Of a stretch of DNA of 9,746 nucleotides, positions 2,004 through 9,746 are shown piece by piece. The stretch's first letter is position 1. The number at the start of each line of letters is the position of its first letter. The notes beneath the pieces are model-generated. The model saw only the letters and a program-made list of their open reading frames with translations. It was not told the DNA's origin and did not search any database. The DNA is from a virus (Duplodnaviria > Heunggongvirae > Uroviricota > Caudoviricetes), in the IMG/VR virus record IMGVR_UViG_2609459860_000011. One strand, written 5' to 3'. The position numbers and the translations under genes are program-made.

Positions 2004-3194
2004 ATGAGTGACTATCATCACGGCGTGCAGGTGCTGGAGATTAACGACGGCACCCGCGTCATTTCCACCGTATCCACGGCCATTGTCGGCATGGTCTGCA
2101 CGGCCAGCGATGCGGATGCGGAAACCTTCCCCCTCAATAAACCGGTGCTGATTACCAATGTGCAGAGCGCAATTGCAAAGGCCGGTAAAAAAGGCACGCT
2201 GGCGGCGTCGTTACAGGCCATCGCTGACCAGTCAAAACCGGTCACCGTTGTTGTGCGCGTGGAAGACGGCACCGGCGACGACGAGGAAACGAAACTTGCG
2301 CAGACCGTTTCCAATATCATCGGCACCACCGACGAAAACGGTCAGTACACCGGACTGAAAGCCCTGCTGGCGGCGGAGTCGGTAACCGGTGTTAAACCGC
2401 GCATTCTCGGTGTGCCGGGACTGGACACCAAAGAGGTGGCTGTTGCACTGGCATCAGTCTGTCAGAAGCTGCGCGCTTTCGGGTATATCAGCGCATGGGG
2501 CTGTAAGACCATTTCCGAGGTGAAAGCCTACCGCCAGAATTTCAGCCAGCGTGAACTGATGGTTATCTGGCCGGATTTCCTCGCATGGGATACGGTCACC
2601 AGTACCACCGCCACCGCGTATGCCACCGCCCGTGCGCTGGGTCTGCGCGCTAAAATCGACCAGGAGCAGGGCTGGCATAAAACGCTGTCCAACGTCGGGG
2701 TAAACGGTGTTACCGGCATCAGCGCGTCCGTATTCTGGGATTTGCAGGAGTCCGGCACCGATGCTGACCTGCTTAACGAGTCTGGCGTCACTACGCTGAT
2801 TCGCCGCGACGGTTTCCGCTTCTGGGGTAACCGTACCTGCTCTGATGACCCGCTGTTCCTCTTTGAAAACTACACCCGCACCGCGCAGGTGCTGGCCGAC
2901 ACGATGGCTGAGGCGCACATGTGGGCGGTGGACAAGCCCATCACCGCAACGCTGATTCGCGACATCATTGACGGCATCAATGCCAAATTCCGTGAGCTGA
3001 AAACAAACGGCTATATCGTGGATGGCTCATGCTGGTTCAGCGAAGAATCCAACGATGCGGAAACCCTCAAGGCCGGAAAACTGTATATTGACTACGACTA
3101 TACCCCGGTGCCTCCTCTTGAAAACCTGACCCTGCGCCAGCGTATTACCGATAAATACCTGGCAAATCTGGTCACCTCGGTTAACAGCAATTAA
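2004..3194 (+). CDS. FI: Contractile tail sheath protein (P2 gpFI)
   Basis: 396 aa, the same length as P2 FI; sequence MSDYHHGVQVLEINDGTRVI... recognised as P2-type sheath. RBS GGAG 8 nt upstream. Confidence 0.9.
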   Translation: MSDYHHGVQVLEINDGTRVISTVSTAIVGMVCTASDADAETFPLNKPVLITNVQSAIAKAGKKGTLAASLQAIADQSKPVTVVVRVEDGTGDDEETKLAQTVSNIIGTTDENGQYTGLKALLAAESVTGVKPRILGVPGLDTKEVAVALASVCQKLRAFGYISAWGCKTISEVKAYRQNFSQRELMVIWPDFLAWDTVTSTTATAYATARALGLRAKIDQEQGWHKTLSNVGVNGVTGISASVFWDLQESGTDADLLNESGVTTLIRRDGFRFWGNRTCSDDPLFLFENYTRTAQVLADTMAEAHMWAVDKPITATLIRDIIDGINAKFRELKTNGYIVDGSCWFSEESNDAETLKAGKLYIDYDYTPVPPLENLTLRQRITDKYLANLVTSVNSN

Positions 3195-3206
3195 GGAGCC
3201 TGACCG

Positions 3207-3725
3207 ATGGCAATGCCGCGCAAACTCAAGTTAATGAACGTCTTTCTGAACGGCTACAGCTATCAGGGCGTCGCGAAGTCCGTCACGCTGCCAAAACTGA
3301 CCCGTAAGCTCGAAAACTATCGCGGTGCGGGAATGAACGGCAGCGCACCGGTAGACCTCGGCCTTGATGACGATGCGCTGTCAATGGAGTGGTCGCTCGG
3401 GGGCTTCCCGGATTCGGTTATCTGGGAGCTTTACGCCGCAACCAGTGTGGATGCTGTGCCGATTCGTTTTGCAGGCTCTTACCAGCGCGACGATACCGGC
3501 GAAACGGTGGCCGTCGAGGTGGTCATGCGTGGACGTCAGAAAGAAATCGACACCGGCGAGGGCAAACAGGGAGAAGACACCGAGTCGAAAATCTCCGTGG
3601 TCTGCACCTATTTCCGGCTGACGATGGACGGTAAGGAGCTGGTCGAAATCGACACCATCAACATGATTGAGAAGGTGAACGGCGTCGACCGGCTGGAGCA
3701 ACACCGCCGCAATATCGGCCTGTGA
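3207..3725 (+). CDS. FII: Tail tube protein (P2 gpFII)
   Basis: 172 aa, MAMPRKLKLMNVFLNGYSYQGVAKSVTLPKL...; RBS AAGGAG at 3193-3198; position immediately after the sheath gene as in P2. Confidence 0.9.
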   Translation: MAMPRKLKLMNVFLNGYSYQGVAKSVTLPKLTRKLENYRGAGMNGSAPVDLGLDDDALSMEWSLGGFPDSVIWELYAATSVDAVPIRFAGSYQRDDTGETVAVEVVMRGRQKEIDTGEGKQGEDTESKISVVCTYFRLTMDGKELVEIDTINMIEKVNGVDRLEQHRRNIGL

Positions 3726-3733
3726 TTTTCATC

Positions 3734-3754
3734 CGGTCAGCCTGGCTGACCGGT
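3734..3754 (+). other. Perfect 9-bp stem / 3-nt loop hairpin in the FII-E intergenic region (possible attenuator or mRNA processing/stability element)
   Basis: CCGGTCAGC-CTG-GCTGACCGG, 9 nt after the FII stop; no following T-run, so not a classical intrinsic terminator. Confidence 0.35.
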
Positions 3755-3781
3755 TAACCCCGATTCAGAAGTGAGAAAACC

Positions 3782-4057
3782 ATGAACAAAGAAAATGTGA
3801 TTACCCTGGACAATCCGGTCAAGCGTGGTGAGCAGGTTATCGAACAGGTCACGCTGATGAAACCCAATGCCGGGACGCTGCGCGGTGTCAGTCTGGCTGC
3901 GGTCGCGAACTCTGAAGTCGATGCACTGATTAAGGTGCTGCCGCGCATGACGGCACCGATGCTGACCGAGCAGGAAGTCGCCGCGCTGGAACTGCCTGAC
4001 CTTGTGGCGCTGGCCGGTAAGGTGGTCGGTTTTTTGTCGCCGAACTCGGTGCAGTGA
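3782..4057 (+). CDS. E: Tail assembly chaperone gpE (zero-frame product)
   Basis: 91 aa, MNKENVITLDNPVKRGEQVIEQVTLMKPNAG..., ending ...KVVGFLSPNSVQ. Confidence 0.85.
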   Translation: MNKENVITLDNPVKRGEQVIEQVTLMKPNAGTLRGVSLAAVANSEVDALIKVLPRMTAPMLTEQEVAALELPDLVALAGKVVGFLSPNSVQ

Positions 4058-4209
4058 CGTTTCCGAAAAATCTCTCGGTCGATGACCTGATGGCAGATGT
4101 GGCAGTGATATTTCACTGGCCGCCATCAGAACTGTATCCCATGAGCCTGACCGAACTCATCACATGGCGCGAAAAGGCGCTCCGGCGAAGCGGAAACACG
4201 AATGAGTAA
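3782..4209 (+). CDS. E+E': gpE+E' extended chaperone made by programmed -1 ribosomal frameshift (analogue of lambda G/GT)
   Basis: Slippery heptamer T-TTT-TTG at 4030-4036 in the E frame (GGT TTT TTG). The -1 frame is open from 4036 to TAA at 4207-4209 and encodes ...VAELGAVTFPKNLSVDDLMADVAVIFHWPPSELYPMSLTELITWREKALRRSGNTNE. The stop overlaps the T start codon (ATG 4202-4204). Total about 142 aa, as for P2 E+E'. Confidence 0.7.
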
Positions 4210-6649
4210 CAATGTAAAATTACAGGTATTGCTCAGGGCTGTTGACCAGGCATCCCGCCCGTTTAAATCCATCCGTACAGCGAGCAAGTCGCTGTCGGGG
4301 GATATCCGGGAAACACAAAAATCACTGCGCGAGCTGAACGGTCAGGCGTCCCGTATTGAGGGATTTCGCAAGACCAGTGCGCAGCTCGCCGTGACTGGTC
4401 ATGCACTTGAAAAGGCTCGGCAGGAAGCCGAAGCCCTTGCCACACAGTTTAAAAACACCGAACGTCCGACCCGTGCTCAGGCGAAAGTGCTGGAATCCGC
4501 AAAGCGTGCGGCGGAGGACTTACAGGCGAAATATAACCGCCTGACGGATTCCGTTAAACGCCAGCAGCGGGAACTGGCCGCTGTGGGAATTAATACCCGC
4601 AATCTTGCACATGATGAGCAGGGGCTGAAAAACCGTATCAGTGAAACCACCGCACAGCTTAACCGTCAGCGCGACGCACTGGCGCGTGTCAGTGCACAAC
4701 AGGCAAAACTTAACGCAGTCAAACAGCATTATCAGGCCGGAAAGGAACTGGCAGGAAATATGGCCTCAGTGGGCGCTGCCGGTGTGGGGATTGCTGCTGC
4801 GGGAACGATGGCCGGTGTTAAGCTGCTGATGCCCGGTTATGAGTTTGCGCAGAAAAACTCAGAATTGCAGGCTGTGCTCGGTGTGGCAAAAGACTCCGCC
4901 GAAATGGCCGCATTACGCAAACAGGCGCGCCAGCTCGGCGACAATACCGCCGCCTCGGCGGATGATGCGGCCGGTGCACAGATAATCATCGCGAAAGCGG
5001 GTGGGGATGTTGATGCCATTCAGGCGGCAACGCCGGTCACGCTGAATATGGCGCTGGCGAACCGCCGCACGATGGAAGAAAACGCCGCCCTGCTGATGGG
5101 GATGAAATCCGCCTTTCAGCTTTCAAACGATAAGGTCGCTCATATCGGGGATGTTCTCTCCATGACGATGAACAAAACCGCCGCCGATTTTGACGGCATG
5201 AGCGATGCGCTGACCTATGCCGCACCTGTGGCAAAAAATGCCGGTGTCAGCATTGAAGAAACCGCCGCAATGGTCGGGGCGCTGCATGATGCAAAAATTA
5301 CAGGCTCAATGGCGGGGACGGGAAGCCGTGCCGTGTTAAGTCGCCTGCAGGCACCAACGGGAAAAGCATGGGATGCACTCAAAGAGCTTGGCGTGAAAAC
5401 CTCAGACAGCAAGGGAAACACCCGGCCAATATTTACCATTCTGAAAGAAATGCAGGCCAGTTTTGAGAAAAACCGGCTCGGTACTGCCCAGCAGGCTGAA
5501 TACATGAAAACTATTTTCGGGGAGGAGGCCAGCTCAGCCGCCGCCGTGCTGATGACTGCCGCCTCAACCGGAAAGCTGGACAAACTGACCGCTGCGTTTA
5601 AAGCCTCAGACGGGAAGACTGCCGAGCTGGTAAATATCATGCAGGACAACCTCGGCGGTGACTTTAAGGAGTTTCAGTCCGCTTATGAGGCGGTGGGGAC
5701 TGACCTGTTTGACCAGCAGGAAGGCGCACTGCGTAAGCTCACGCAGACGGCCACAAAGTATGTGTTAAAACTCGACGGCTGGATACAGAAAAACAAATCA
5801 CTGGCGTCAACCATTGGTCTCATTGCCGGTGGCGCACTGGCGCTTACTGGCATCATCGGTGCCATTGGCCTCGTAGCCTGGCCGGTTATCACCGGCATCA
5901 ATGCCATCATCGCGGCAGCAGGCGCAATGGGGGCAATCTTCACGACGGTTGGCAGTGCCGTTATGACGGCCATCGGGGCGATTAGCTGGCCGGTTGTGGC
6001 CGTGGTGGCCGCCATTGTCGCCGGGGCGTTGCTTATCCGTAAATACTGGGAGCCTGTCAGCGCATTCTTTGGCGGTGTGGTGGAAGGGCTGAAAGCGGCA
6101 TTTGCGCCGGTGGGGGAACTGTTCACGCCACTTAAGCCGGTGTTTGACTGGCTGGGTGAAAAGTTACAGGCCGTGTGGCAGTGGTTTAAAAACCTGATTG
6201 CCCCGGTCAAAGCCACACAGGACACCCTGAACCGTTGCCGTGACACGGGCGTCATGTTCGGGCAGGCACTGGCTGACGCGTTAATGCTGCCGCTTAATGC
6301 GTTCAACAAACTGCGCAGCGGTATTGACTGGGTACTGGAAAAACTCGGTGTTATCAACAAAGAGTCAGACACACTTGACCAGACCGCCGCAAGGACTAAT
6401 GCCGTCACGTATGGCACCGGTGGTTATATTCCGGCGACCAGCTCTTATGCAGGCTATCAGGCTTATCAGCCGGTCACGGCACCGGCTGGTCGCTCTTATG
6501 TGGACCAGAGTAAAAACGAATATCACATCAGCCTGACGGGCGGTACTGCGCCAGGGACACAGCTCGACCGCCAGTTACAGGATGCACTCGAAAAATACGA
6601 GCGGGATAAACGTGCGCGCGCCCGTGCCAGCATGATGCATGACGGTTAA
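4202..6649 (+). CDS. T: Tail tape measure protein (P2 gpT)
   Basis: 815 aa, the same length as P2 T. N-terminal coiled-coil-like Gln/Ala/Arg/Leu-rich region and a central Gly/Ala/Ile-rich hydrophobic stretch typical of tape measure proteins. Start is translationally coupled to the E' end. Confidence 0.9.
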   Translation: MSNNVKLQVLLRAVDQASRPFKSIRTASKSLSGDIRETQKSLRELNGQASRIEGFRKTSAQLAVTGHALEKARQEAEALATQFKNTERPTRAQAKVLESAKRAAEDLQAKYNRLTDSVKRQQRELAAVGINTRNLAHDEQGLKNRISETTAQLNRQRDALARVSAQQAKLNAVKQHYQAGKELAGNMASVGAAGVGIAAAGTMAGVKLLMPGYEFAQKNSELQAVLGVAKDSAEMAALRKQARQLGDNTAASADDAAGAQIIIAKAGGDVDAIQAATPVTLNMALANRRTMEENAALLMGMKSAFQLSNDKVAHIGDVLSMTMNKTAADFDGMSDALTYAAPVAKNAGVSIEETAAMVGALHDAKITGSMAGTGSRAVLSRLQAPTGKAWDALKELGVKTSDSKGNTRPIFTILKEMQASFEKNRLGTAQQAEYMKTIFGEEASSAAAVLMTAASTGKLDKLTAAFKASDGKTAELVNIMQDNLGGDFKEFQSAYEAVGTDLFDQQEGALRKLTQTATKYVLKLDGWIQKNKSLASTIGLIAGGALALTGIIGAIGLVAWPVITGINAIIAAAGAMGAIFTTVGSAVMTAIGAISWPVVAVVAAIVAGALLIRKYWEPVSAFFGGVVEGLKAAFAPVGELFTPLKPVFDWLGEKLQAVWQWFKNLIAPVKATQDTLNRCRDTGVMFGQALADALMLPLNAFNKLRSGIDWVLEKLGVINKESDTLDQTAARTNAVTYGTGGYIPATSSYAGYQAYQPVTAPAGRSYVDQSKNEYHISLTGGTAPGTQLDRQLQDALEKYERDKRARARASMMHDG

Positions 6650-6663
6650 GGAGGTGACGAAAA

Positions 6664-7143
6664 ATGATGCTCGCGTTAGGTATGTTTGTTTTTATGCGCC
6701 AGACGCTGCCACACCAGACCATGCAGCGTGAATCAGATTATCGCTGGCCGTCAAATTCCCGTATCGGTAAACGGGATGCCTACCAGTTTCTCGGTGTGGG
6801 TGAGGAAAACATTACGCTTGCAGGCGTGCTTTATCCCGAACTGACCGGCGGGAAGCTGACGATGACCACGCTCAGGCTGATGGCAGAGGAAGGCCGGGCG
6901 TGGCCGTTGCTGGATGGCACCGGCATGATTTACGGCATGTATGTCATCAGCAGGGTGAGTGAAACAGGGAGTATTTTCTTTGCAGACGGCACACCCCGGA
7001 AAATTGATTTTACGCTGTCACTCACCCGCGTTGATGAATCACTGGCCGCGCTTTATGGCGATATCGGTAAACAGGCGGAATCGCTCATCGGTAAGGCTGG
7101 CAGTATGGCGACTAAATTCACGGGTATGACGGGGGCGGGATAA
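6664..7143 (+). CDS. U: Tail protein gpU
   Basis: 159 aa, MMLALGMFVFMRQTLPHQTMQRESDYRWPS...; RBS AGGAGG at 6648-6653; stop TAA 7141-7143 overlaps the D start by 1 nt (TAATG). Confidence 0.85.
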   Translation: MMLALGMFVFMRQTLPHQTMQRESDYRWPSNSRIGKRDAYQFLGVGEENITLAGVLYPELTGGKLTMTTLRLMAEEGRAWPLLDGTGMIYGMYVISRVSETGSIFFADGTPRKIDFTLSLTRVDESLAALYGDIGKQAESLIGKAGSMATKFTGMTGAG

Positions 7144-8306
7144 TGCTGGATGCGCTGACATTTGATGCAGGCAGTACGCTGACGCCGGATTACATGCTGA
7201 TGCTCGACAGCAGGGATATTACCGGCAATATCAGCGACCGTCTGATGAGCATGACCCTGACGGATAACCGGGGCTTTGAGGCTGATCAGCTTGATATTGA
7301 ACTGAACGATGCCGACGGGCAGGTCGAACTGCCGGTTCGTGGCGCTGTTCTGACGGTGTATATCGGCTGGAAAGGTTTTGCCCTGGTATGCAAAGGGAAA
7401 TTCACCGTTGATGAGGTAGAACACCGGGGCACGCCGGATGTGGTCGCCATCCGGGCCCGGAGTGCAGATTTTCGTGGCACGCTCAATTCCCGCCGTGAAG
7501 GCTCCTGGCATGACACCACGCTCGGTGCGATTGTTGAGGCGATAGCCTCCCGTAACAGGCTGGAAGCCAGTGTCGCTCCGTCACTGGCCGGAATTAAAAT
7601 CCCGCACATCGACCAGTCGCAGGAGTCTGATGCAAAATTCCTGACCCGCCTTGCTGAACGCAACGGCGGTGAGGTGTCGGTAAAAATGGGAAAACTGTTG
7701 TTTCTCAAAGCGGGGCAGGGGGGGACGGCCAGCGGTAAAAAAATCCCGCAGATTACCATCACCCGCAGCGACGGCGACCGTCATCATTTTGCGATTGCTG
7801 ACCGTGGAGCCTACACCGGCGTAACGGCAAAGTGGTTACACACCAAAGACCCGAAGCCGCAAAAGCAGAAGGTAAAACTGAAACGCAAAAAGAAAGAGAA
7901 ACACCTGCGCGCACTGGAGCACCCGAAAGCGAAACCGGTCACGCAGAAGAAAGCGCCAAAAGTACCGGAAGCGCGCGAAGGTGAATACATGGCCGGTGAG
8001 GCTGACAATGTTTTTGCCCTGACCACGGTATATGCCACGAAAGCGCAGGCCATGCGCGCCGCTCAGGCGAAGTGGGATAAACTGCAACGGGGCGTTGCGG
8101 AGTTCTCCATCAGCCTGGCTACCGGTCGGGCTGATATTTACACGGAAACACCGGTTAAAGTGTCAGGCTTTAAGCGCGTCATAGACGAGCAGGACTGGAC
8201 AATCACTAAGGTGACACATTTTCTGAATAATAGCGGCTTCACGACGTCCTTAGAGCTTGAGGTCAGGCTTTCTGATGTGGAGTACGAAACAGAAGATGAA
8301 GAATGA
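7143..8306 (+). CDS. D: Tail protein gpD (P2 late gene D)
   Basis: 387 aa, the same length as P2 D; MLDALTFDAGSTLTPDYMLMLDSRDITGNISDRLMSMTLTDNRGFEADQLDIELNDADGQ...; last gene of the FI-D tail operon. Confidence 0.85.
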   Translation: MLDALTFDAGSTLTPDYMLMLDSRDITGNISDRLMSMTLTDNRGFEADQLDIELNDADGQVELPVRGAVLTVYIGWKGFALVCKGKFTVDEVEHRGTPDVVAIRARSADFRGTLNSRREGSWHDTTLGAIVEAIASRNRLEASVAPSLAGIKIPHIDQSQESDAKFLTRLAERNGGEVSVKMGKLLFLKAGQGGTASGKKIPQITITRSDGDRHHFAIADRGAYTGVTAKWLHTKDPKPQKQKVKLKRKKKEKHLRALEHPKAKPVTQKKAPKVPEAREGEYMAGEADNVFALTTVYATKAQAMRAAQAKWDKLQRGVAEFSISLATGRADIYTETPVKVSGFKRVIDEQDWTITKVTHFLNNSGFTTSLELEVRLSDVEYETEDEE

Positions 8307-8324
8307 TGTGTTTTATTTATCTGT

Positions 8325-8353
8325 TTGTTTTGTAAGGATAAATTAACTAAAAT
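8325..8353 (+). promoter_or_regulatory. Candidate sigma70 promoter for ogr
   Basis: -35 TTGTTT (8325-8330), 17-bp spacer, -10 TAAAAT (8348-8353); would give a 5' UTR of about 28 nt before the ogr ATG. ogr is known to have its own promoter in P2. Confidence 0.35.
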
Positions 8354-8387
8354 GGCACCATCAACAAAACCGGAAGAGGTGCTCGCG

Positions 8388-8606
8388 ATGTTTCATTGTC
8401 CTTTATGCCAGCATGCCGCACATGCGCGTACAAGTCGCTATATCACTGACACGACAAAAGAGCGTTATCACCAGTGTCAGAACGTGAATTGCAGCGCCAC
8501 GTTCATCACTTATGAGTCGGTACAGCGATACATCGTGAAGCCGGGAGAAGTCCACGCAGTAAGGCCGCACCCGTTGCCGTCAGGGCAGCAAATTATGTGG
8601 ATGTGA
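8388..8606 (+). CDS. ogr: Ogr zinc-finger late-gene transcriptional activator (Ogr/Delta family)
   Basis: 72 aa, MFHCPLCQHAAHARTSRYITDTTKERYHQCQNVNCSATFITYESVQRYIVKPGEVHAVRPHPLPSGQQIMWM; Cys4 motif CPLC...CQNVNC. RBS GGAAGAGG at 8372-8379. The ORF-track start at 8325 is an in-frame upstream extension with no RBS. Confidence 0.85.
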   Translation: MFHCPLCQHAAHARTSRYITDTTKERYHQCQNVNCSATFITYESVQRYIVKPGEVHAVRPHPLPSGQQIMWM

Positions 8607-8617
8607 TCACAAAAATA

Positions 8618-8645
8618 GCCCCTCAGTTGAGGGGCTTTATTTATG
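8618..8645 (+). terminator. Rho-independent terminator after ogr
   Basis: AGCCCCTC-AGTT-GAGGGGCT (8-bp GC-rich stem, 4-nt loop) followed by TTATTTAT. Confidence 0.6.
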
Positions 8646-8650
8646 GTCGA

Positions 8651-8669
8651 TGTGGACGCTATGTGGACA
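8651..8669 (+). other. Direct repeats ATGTGGAC x2 (a third, ATGTGGAT, at 8595-8602): candidate integrase arm-type binding sites of the prophage att arm
   Basis: gATGTGGACgctATGTGGACAg between the ogr terminator and the host-side terminator. I recall, without certainty, that P2 Int arm sites resemble TGTGGACA. An IHF-like site TATCATCAGGTTA (8693-8705) lies just downstream. Confidence 0.3.
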
Positions 8670-8734
8670 GTGGTTTATATAAATCCATTTATATCATCAG
8701 GTTAGGTGATTTTTTGTGACACCATCCCTGTCTT

Positions 8735-8762
8735 CCCCCACATGATGTGGGGGTTTTTTTTT
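8735..8762 (+). terminator. Strong rho-independent terminator; possibly the duplicated 3' end/terminator of the upstream host locus (cpxP/CpxQ) forming the att core
   Basis: CCCCCAC-ATGAT-GTGGGGG followed by a run of 9 T (8754-8762). It sits 81 bp upstream of fieF. Confidence 0.65.
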
Positions 8763-8843
8763 ATCCTCAATTTGCCTGCTGCTTAATGCATTGCAGATGA
8801 TTTGCTTCCGTTATACTAGCGTCAGTTGATAGCGGGAGTATTT

Positions 8844-9746
8844 ATGAATCAATCTTATGGACGGCTGGTCAGTCGGGCGGCGATTGCTGCGACGGCGATG
8901 GCTTCGTTGCTATTGCTGATTAAAATTTTTGCATGGTGGTATACCGGGTCGGTGAGTATTCTCGCCGCGCTGGTGGATTCGCTGGTGGATATCGGCGCGT
9001 CGTTGACGAATTTACTGGTGGTGCGATATTCCCTGCAACCTGCCGACGATAATCACTCGTTTGGTCACGGTAAAGCAGAGTCCCTCGCGGCGCTGGCGCA
9101 AAGTATGTTTATCTCCGGTTCGGCACTATTCCTGTTTTTGACGGGTATTCAACATCTGATATCTCCAACACCGATGACAGATCCAGGCGTCGGGGTTATC
9201 GTGACAATTGTGGCGCTAATTTGTACGATTATCCTTGTCTCGTTTCAGCGTTGGGTGGTGCGGCGGACGCAAAGCCAGGCGGTGCGGGCTGATATGCTAC
9301 ATTACCAGTCTGATGTTATGATGAACGGCGCAATTCTGCTGGCGCTGGGGTTGTCCTGGTACGGCTGGCATCGCGCCGATGCTCTGTTTGCATTGGGAAT
9401 CGGCATCTATATTTTATATAGCGCGTTACGCATGGGATATGAGGCGGTACAGTCATTACTGGATCGCGCATTGCCTGATGAGGAACGGCAAGAAATTATT
9501 GATATCGTGACTTCCTGGCCGGGTGTTAGCGGCGCTCACGATCTTCGCACGCGGCAGTCAGGGCCGACCCGCTTTATTCAGATTCATTTGGAAATGGAAG
9601 ACTCTCTGCCTTTGGTTCAGGCACATATGGTGGCGGATCAGGTAGAGCAGGCTATTTTACGGCGTTTTCCGGGATCGGATGTAATTATCCATCAGGACCC
9701 CTGTTCCGTCGTACCCAGGGAGGGTAAACGGTCTATGCTTTCATAA
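8844..9746 (+). CDS. fieF: Cation-diffusion-facilitator family Fe(II)/Zn(II) efflux transporter FieF (YiiP)
   Basis: 300 aa, [51 protein letters not shown]..., recognised as E. coli FieF; RBS GGGAG at 8833-8837; TAA at 9744-9746. The ORF-track start at 8826 is an upstream extension. Candidate -10 TATACT at 8812-8817. Confidence 0.9.

Follow-up and report, generated by a model that had tools for sequence, protein, structure and literature searches.

The window, i.e., the whole analyzed stretch of 9,746 nucleotides (IMG/VR record IMGVR_UViG_2609459860_000011), combines genes of a P2-like phage with a bacterial gene at its right end. A P2-type tail block on the plus strand (positions 2004-8306) encodes sheath FI, tube FII, E/E', tape measure T, U and D (Pfam Phage_sheath_1, Phage_tube, PhageMin_Tail, Phage_P2_GpU and Phage_GPD), and its gene order matches that of phage Wphi and of the lysogen PEC408. 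It is followed by ogr (8388-8606, plus strand; Pfam Ogr_Delta, E = 1.1e-21), which specifies the late-gene activator, is the final phage gene before the attachment site and has a counterpart annotated as ogrK or ogr in matching lysogens and in phage Wphi. At the right end, fieF (yiiP; 8844-9746, plus strand) encodes a cation efflux transporter of the CDF family (Pfam Cation_efflux, 8.6e-51; ZT_dimer, 1.5e-26) and is annotated in all matching genomes. The left end of the window, 28-1944, looks like an invertible tail-fiber (host-range) segment of the Gin/Cin type within a P2-like prophage: a serine recombinase with Resolvase and HTH_7 domains is encoded within 1174-1944 on the plus strand (197 aa in the PEC408 annotation), and beside it, on the minus strand, are an open reading frame for tail-fiber assembly (383-826, Caudo_TAP) and one for a tail-fiber C-terminus (829-1323).

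Two terminator-like hairpins are present in the region between ogr and fieF, at 8617-8636 and 8735-8753. The one 3' of ogr, AGCCCCTCAGTTGAGGGGCT, was scored on both strands in a terminator scan and is found at the same place in Wphi attP. Further downstream, a repeat search revealed two direct repeats on the plus strand, ATGTGGAC, 11 bp apart (8650-8668, with copies at 8650-8657 and 8661-8668), as candidate arm-type integrase sites on the ogr side. They fit the P2-type arm consensus tgTGGaCa (PMC3448106), and so does a similar pair, TGTGGACACTATGTGGACAC, in the int-side arm of attL and attP; we infer from these sequences that the ATGTGGAC repeats serve as arm-type binding sites of the integrase. 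From the arm repeats to the attachment core extends an A+T-rich phage arm (8669-8717) that is absent from attB and features a palindrome (8677-8694) as well as an A/C polymorphism at 8709. Over the complete ogr-side arm (8607-8717) the window differs from Wphi attP by two substitutions, one of them at 8709, where the window has A and both Wphi and PEC408 have C. An IHF-like match, TATCATCAGGTTA, was spotted by eye only at about 8692-8704 and is not claimed as a site. Beyond the core, positions 8766-8843 (plus strand) are host cpxP-fieF intergenic DNA 5' of fieF that was not damaged by the insertion, as seen in a base-for-base alignment with the uninterrupted site of Escherichia coli HS. The right end of the window is therefore attR of a Wphi-type P2-like prophage (Peduovirus) with host DNA beyond it.

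The second hairpin had been noted in the preliminary description, which placed it at 8735-8762, 81 bp before fieF, and regarded it as a plausible copy of the cpxP terminator. This description of the sequence is accurate. On the plus strand, the stem is formed by 8735-8742 and 8746-8753, the loop by 8743-8745 and the T-run by 8754-8762, and the distance from the T-run to the fieF start codon ATG at 8844 is exactly 81 nt (8763-8843). RNA folding yielded an 8-bp stem with six G-C pairs and a 3-nt loop, followed by nine T, within a perfect 9-nt inverted repeat, CCCCCACAT (8735-8743) and ATGTGGGGG (8745-8753); the stem appeared in the minimum-free-energy structure of every construct folded. Positions 8735-8762 thus have the build of an intrinsic terminator, a G+C-rich stem-loop followed by a T-run, and a terminator scan of 8300-9000 returned three sites, this hairpin included, where 0.9 were expected. 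Apart from the length of the T-run, the same bases are found directly 3' of cpxP in prophage-free E. coli, e.g., strain HS, and hairpin plus T-run correspond to nt 32-58 of the published 58-nt small RNA (sRNA) CpxQ (PMC9753035, Table S3). This recurrence 3' of cpxP in uninterrupted E. coli and in published CpxQ shows that the hairpin is not a chance structure, and its identification as the cpxP/CpxQ terminator is borne out. The window has nine T in the T-run, compared with eight in the attB, attL, attR and phage attP copies extracted from E. coli, while runs of seven and nine T do occur in other contigs and species. The ninth T belongs to the host-derived part of attR; in E. coli, the closest match to 8600-8900 reaches 99.7% identity. 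Either this T is a rare variant, or the homopolymer was misread in sequencing.

The hairpin forms part of a longer attachment core at 8718-8765 (plus strand; 48 bp here and 47 bp elsewhere) that consists of CpxQ nt 15-58 plus ATC; its first base is CpxQ nt 15, and its last lies 3 nt past the final U of CpxQ. An overlap of the attachment core with the CpxQ 3' end had been predicted and is thereby established. Except for the extra T of the window, the core is identical in attB (HS), in attL and attR (EM22-18-53), in attR of the window and in Wphi attP, the extra T being the sole difference between the core of the window and that of Wphi attP. The common block, GACACCATCCCTGTCTTCCCCCACATGATGTGGGGG-T8-ATC (GACACC...GGGGG-T8/9-ATC), is bordered by sequences that diverge immediately outside of it and on the expected sides; the flanks are swapped around it, just as reciprocal site-specific recombination predicts.

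To delimit the junctions, positions 8600-8900 were compared with 5,426 complete E. coli genomes. All 5,426 gave a match, and only 789 of them covered the phage side. Among the matches listed, prophage-free genomes (HS, O157:H7 and others) aligned only from 8718 (query base 119) onward and were 98.4-99.5% identical over 8718-8900. The converse search with the attL segment of a lysogen resulted in 793 full matches, with prophage-free genomes stopping at the equivalent of 8765. The insertion point is identical in the 789 (attR) and 793 (attL) genomes; the site is uninterrupted in 4,591-4,594 of the 5,426 genomes and occupied in approximately 15%. Of the integration range 8706-8765 originally proposed, the end at 8765 is consequently correct, while the start has to be moved to the junction at 8718, since 8706-8717 belong to the phage arm. 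The alignment of prophage-free genomes from 8718 onward also means that the hairpin is not a phage-derived element lacking a match in prophage-free cpxP-fieF regions.

The window holds attR only, and its own attL and cpxP are outside of it, so statements about attL rest on related lysogens. None of the complete E. coli genomes carries the exact window (best whole-window match 97.4%), and PEC408 is its closest full-length relative. In HS, fieF follows directly after cpxP; in EM22-18-53 and PEC408 the gene order is cpxR-cpxP-int-C-cox...D-ogr-fieF-pfkA. cpxP is thus the gene at the other prophage end in both of these lysogens, as had been surmised, and together with a tyrosine integrase it is found at the attL end of EM22-18-53, PEC408 and ETEC1748. 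The integrases adjoining attL have 326 aa with Int_N and Phage_integrase domains and, in related lysogens, are 99-100% identical to Wphi Int, whereas that of a divergent phage using the same core is 68% identical. As attL alignments and the segregation of a loop base described below show for related lysogens, the other prophage end rebuilds an intact CpxQ 3' end from phage DNA, in agreement with the proposal. As neither a phage-borne hairpin foreign to prophage-free genomes nor a gene other than cpxP at the far prophage end was encountered, the hypothesis of integration at cpxP/CpxQ stands. The EM22-18-53 prophage has a deletion from just after lysC to the end of D (seen at L002, 19149-19707) and no baseplate or tail genes; with both attachment junctions, int and ogr still in place, it occupies the same site as a defective prophage.

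We assign a probability of about 0.9 to the reading that 8718-8765 is the attR core resulting from Wphi-type site-specific integration into the 3' two-thirds of CpxQ and the cpxP/CpxQ terminator. The attP of the phage, located between ogr and int, carries a 47-bp copy of CpxQ nt 15-58 plus ATC. According to this model, the ATGTGGAC arm repeats flanking the core are the expected binding sites of the tyrosine integrase, and strands would be exchanged in the leftmost part of the core, with CCATCCC as the most likely place. attL would then be composed of cpxP, host CpxQ up to about nt 18-25, phage CpxQ from about nt 26 to 58, and int, with the cpxP-CpxQ unit rebuilt intact, while attR comprises ogr, the phage arm, a promoterless CpxQ nt 15-58 the right part of which is original host DNA, the region upstream of fieF and fieF itself. 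The extended match rightward of the crossover would restore the 3' end of the cut gene, as it does at attachment sites in tRNA genes. CpxQ of a lysogen has a phage-derived 3' part and is expected to be expressed normally from attL.

A polymorphism in the terminator loop allowed the position of the crossover to be narrowed down. Position 8745 (plus strand), corresponding to CpxQ nt 42, is A in the window and varies between A and C in hosts: about 20% of uninterrupted sites, including that of K-12 MG1655, have a C-loop, and HS and O157:H7 have A. In PEC408, the loop reads ATGCT at attR versus ATGAT at attL. Alleles were counted as exact matches to junction-spanning queries of less than 100 nt under a strict E-value cut-off. 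At attL, exact matches were obtained for loop C in 0 of 528 and for loop A in 356 of 762 cases. At attR only loop C was counted, with 151 exact matches among 687 for the arm with C at 8709 and none among 744 for the arm with A at 8709, so that C, the K-12 host allele, is present in no fewer than 151 of the roughly 740 copies of attR. For attP the query comprised 81 nt of arm plus core with C at 8709 and T8, and the 43 phage records included 0 exact matches with loop C and 35 with loop A; all 43 read as loop A, each listed record having exactly one match more with the A version of the query than with the C version. The strains M217, 4/2-1, ECCWS199, H9Ecoli, AR435, 219 and PEC408 each combine an A-loop attL with a C-loop attR. 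IMG/VR contigs fit this pattern: 5 of 31 attR copies have C, and these five represent two unrelated arm types, whereas C is absent from all 24 attL copies and from all contigs of the attP type.

Because the C-loop at attR was tied to one arm haplotype in the E. coli genome counts, the host background was tested directly with the PEC408 flanks. When the 700-nt flanks of this prophage were rejoined at the C-loop core, the product was 100.0% identical over 1,447 nt to prophage-free K-12 strains (BW25113, MC4100 and others). The C at attR is the host allele and the A at attL comes from the phage, which places strand exchange to the left of 8745. The same linkage with the arm haplotype implies that the 151 cases are not independent and reflect clonal population structure; the association of the 8709 arm allele with the loop allele suggests that integration took place independently only a few times and that the lysogen population is strongly clonal.

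Together with the left junction, the marker would confine strand exchange to 8718-8744. Within this interval, about 30 different phage left arms, taken from IMG/VR and from other genera, have their identity with attB end two or four bases before CCATCCC (8722-8728). This 7-bp candidate overlap is flanked by the dyad GACA (8718-8721)/TGTC (8729-8732), of which some lineages keep only CA/TG. The sharp common left boundary and the dyad GACA-CCATCCC-TGTC make CCATCCC the most likely strand-exchange overlap, an assignment derived from boundaries and symmetry. With the overlap at this position, the other 37 bp of the core would rebuild CpxQ nt 26-58, the terminator and ATC from phage DNA.

A different location of the crossover within the same attachment site has to be weighed against this assignment. 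If strands were exchanged to the right of the loop, i.e., in the 3' stem, the T-run or ATC, CpxQ at attL would be entirely host-derived and the C at attR would be phage-borne. The restriction of the C-loop to one phage arm haplotype at attR indeed gives it the appearance of a phage-linked trait. However, none of the 43 phage attP records and no attP-type IMG/VR contig has a C-loop, phages with the C-arm show both loop alleles at attR (11 A, 4 C), and C at attR is also found on a second, unrelated arm type (L025). In addition, the PEC408 flanks represent exactly the K-12 haplotype, which carries C, and C is as frequent at attR (about 20%) as in uninterrupted hosts. On the attP census and the reconstruction of the PEC408 flanks, a phage-borne C-loop at attR was rejected, and an exchange to the right of the loop is very unlikely. 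Since a perfect inverted repeat of 9 bp occupies the center of the core, the terminator palindrome might also be taken for the recombination site itself, its stem halves acting as inverted integrase core sites and its loop as the overlap, in analogy to tRNA attachment sites where the anticodon stem-loop provides core sites and overlap. This first guess was dropped. Heterology within the overlap normally blocks tyrosine recombinases, yet the loop is A in the phage and C in K-12-type hosts and lysogeny occurs at the frequency expected from host abundance, with no reduction in the frequency of lysogens. The loop marker, moreover, segregates cleanly with the right flank, and the identity common to all phage lineages starts 15-17 bp to the left of the stem, which would be needless if exchange took place in the loop. 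We consider the palindrome extremely unlikely as an integrase core site.

Direct repeats around an inserted element arise by transposition as well, and the CpxQ 3' repeat at both prophage ends might accordingly be a target-site duplication or a product of homologous recombination. This explanation is refuted by the presence of the core in attP: free phages already carry the 47 bp in the interval from ogr to int. Beside attL the element has genes for a tyrosine integrase and Cox, the core lies between arm-type repeats, and the single insertion point shared by all attR and attL matches given above likewise speaks against it. In line with this, experimental work on Wphi Int/Cox recombination at this site is cited in PMC3448106. 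Transposition and homologous recombination are hardly conceivable as the source of the repeat, and site-specific integration into CpxQ with strand exchange in the left part of the core is retained as the preferred reading.

Integration leaves two unequal versions of CpxQ in a lysogen. The cpxP stop codon lies 9 nt before CpxQ nt 1. A full-length copy linked to cpxP was found at attL in lysogens; in comparison with the uninterrupted allele it differs by one loop base in K-12-type hosts and otherwise equals the common A-loop allele. The copy in the window is limited to CpxQ nt 15-58, with nt 1-14 replaced by the phage arm. These first nucleotides include U7, which has been shown to pair with nhaB, and CpxQ, the 5' base of which is U, is released from the cpxP 3' UTR by RNase E (PMC10250213). 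As the fragment in the window follows ogr and the phage arm instead of cpxP and has lost the RNase E site of the CpxQ 5' end, the window copy is a promoterless 3' fragment and not a CpxQ gene. The promoter of fieF has been placed between CpxQ and fieF (Grabowicz et al., PMC4817254), and cpxP, CpxQ and the fieF upstream region all stay intact after insertion.

A search with Rfam produced no CpxQ family match on the plus (transcribed) strand of the window. The family Hrs1 (RF02628) gave a hit at 8717-8761 on the minus strand with 31.4 bits, below the gathering threshold of 56.4, and an assignment of the window to Hrs1 was rejected on account of score and strand. In an Erwinia contig (L106, 182-255), RF02628 passes with 58.2 bits on the strand opposite to an open reading frame of the CpxP family, whereas in the source paper of Hrs1, hrs1, cpxP and fieF share one strand. 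The RF02628 model (Hrs1, Erwinia amylovora) seems to represent the CpxQ orthologue in reverse-complement orientation.

The partial CpxQ copy on the phage or at attR, or antisense transcription from int into attL, might exert a regulatory effect, a possibility that we regard as very unlikely. In Wphi-type phages CpxQ nt 15-58 are located about 80 nt downstream of the ogr terminator, and lysogens keep a second copy at attR. This stretch is an Hfq-binding terminator module devoid of the CpxQ 5' end; if ogr or late-gene transcripts read through, an Hfq-binding truncated CpxQ could act as a competitor or a mimic of the host sRNA while the phage multiplies. On the int strand of EM22-18-53 attL, no terminator-like site was detected from the end of int to the CpxQ terminator (L002, 597-760), and the CpxQ hairpin is not followed by a T-run on that strand; a convergent C-int transcript of the lysogen could therefore run antisense into cpxQ and cpxP. 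During lambda infection, CpxQ is reported to be one of two RNAs that dominate the sRNA-containing E. coli-lambda RNA pairs captured on Hfq (bioRxiv 10.1101/2024.10.31.621285), so that an interaction between phage and CpxQ is not far-fetched.

The cpxP-fieF region is already known as a phage attachment site. In the genome of E. coli W, prophage Wphi1 (P2) is inserted at cpxP-fieF and P2-type prophages reside at cyaR, rybB and ssrA (PMC3032704), which agrees with the general statement of the preliminary description that P2-like phages integrate at sRNA genes. Nilsson and co-workers located attB of Wphi and L-413C at MG1655 coordinate 4104392 and reported one core common to both phages (PMC3448106), and a study on Salmonella Pullorum described a P2-like prophage at yiiP-cpxP (PMC6449608). 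The window is an instance of the Wphi/L-413C site (cpxP [yiiO]-fieF [yiiP]), with which it shares the core, the ogr-side arm, the arm repeats and the flanking host genes; nothing essential differs, the window having a ninth T and A at 8709. Within the literature searched, descriptions of the Wphi site refer to it as intergenic (cpxP-fieF) without mentioning CpxQ, which was described in 2016, and no paper linking CpxQ with a prophage, an integrase or attB was found. The overlap with CpxQ follows directly from the published cpxP-fieF site; this overlap and the marker-based position of the crossover are small additions to a known site.

P2 at locI (cyaR), P2-type prophages at rybB and Fels-2/SopEphi at ssrA are likewise cases of a P2-family integrase acting at the 3' end or terminator of an sRNA gene, and there, too, the phage-borne core restores the target (PMC3032704, PMC3448106). 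The target gene and the core sequence differ from those of the CpxQ site, and CpxQ, unlike these targets, is not free-standing. Since it is processed from an mRNA 3' UTR, its restoration by the phage extends to the terminator of an mRNA as well as to an sRNA. A similar logic applies to tRNA-gene sites, e.g., those of 186 at tRNA-Ile and HP1 at tRNA-Leu, where the crossover lies within the gene, identity reaches to just past the 3' end as here, and attL carries a hybrid but intact gene; restoration at such sites has been described (PMC3448106). The CpxQ site is set apart from them by its target, an Hfq-dependent regulatory RNA with an intrinsic terminator instead of a tRNA, and by the probable exchange in a short upstream dyad instead of an anticodon-like loop.

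For annotation, the consequence is that the "intergenic cpxP-fieF" site in fact corresponds to the body of the CpxQ sRNA together with its terminator. The CpxQ expressed from about 15% of complete E. coli genomes would have a 3' part made of phage DNA, and in K-12-type hosts lysogeny turns CpxQ nt 42 from C to A, a change that is probably neutral because A is the commoner natural allele. The overlap is worth knowing both when cpxQ is deleted or engineered and when Wphi Int is employed as a recombination tool. The current understanding of P2-family integration is unchanged.

The site is used by several phage lineages in several genera. In a collection with one genome per species, an exact 41-nt core pattern was retrieved from at least 120 loci in Klebsiella, Citrobacter, Enterobacter, Kosakonia, Salmonella, Serratia, Erwinia, Mixta and other genera. 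Among the 120 listed loci, all copies have an A-loop, 110 are preceded by a perfect CpxQ 5' part, and nine have phage-type left arms, including copies in Kosakonia, Citrobacter, Yokenella, Kluyvera and Pseudocitrobacter. That one core can serve several diverged integrase lineages in many enterobacterial genera is explained by how very strongly CpxQ is conserved.

Fifteen Yersinia (pestis) phage records, including L-413C, vB_YpM_22/50 and HQ103, also combine a Wphi-type ogr-side arm with the CpxQ core, and the full-length matches among those listed show no mismatch to the 81-nt query of arm plus core. A P2 phylogeny paper of 2011 noted that no sequenced Yersinia had a matching attB (PMC3448106), and the Wphi-type Yersinia phages were probably acquired from E. 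coli-like hosts. In Citrobacter amalonaticus P55, two copies of the core occur on the same strand about 1.8 kb apart (L125, 1047-1087 and 2885-2925), one of them with a phage-type left arm; the pair may be a highly reduced remnant at the site. A 32,330-bp circular sequence from E. coli 2020N21-246-1, deposited as "plasmid unnamed3" (NZ_JBQJRQ010000002.1; L006), represents a complete P2-like phage genome whose attP contains the same CpxQ core between different arms and whose integrase shares 68% identity with Wphi Int; the assembly probably picked up a phage in its excised or episomal state.
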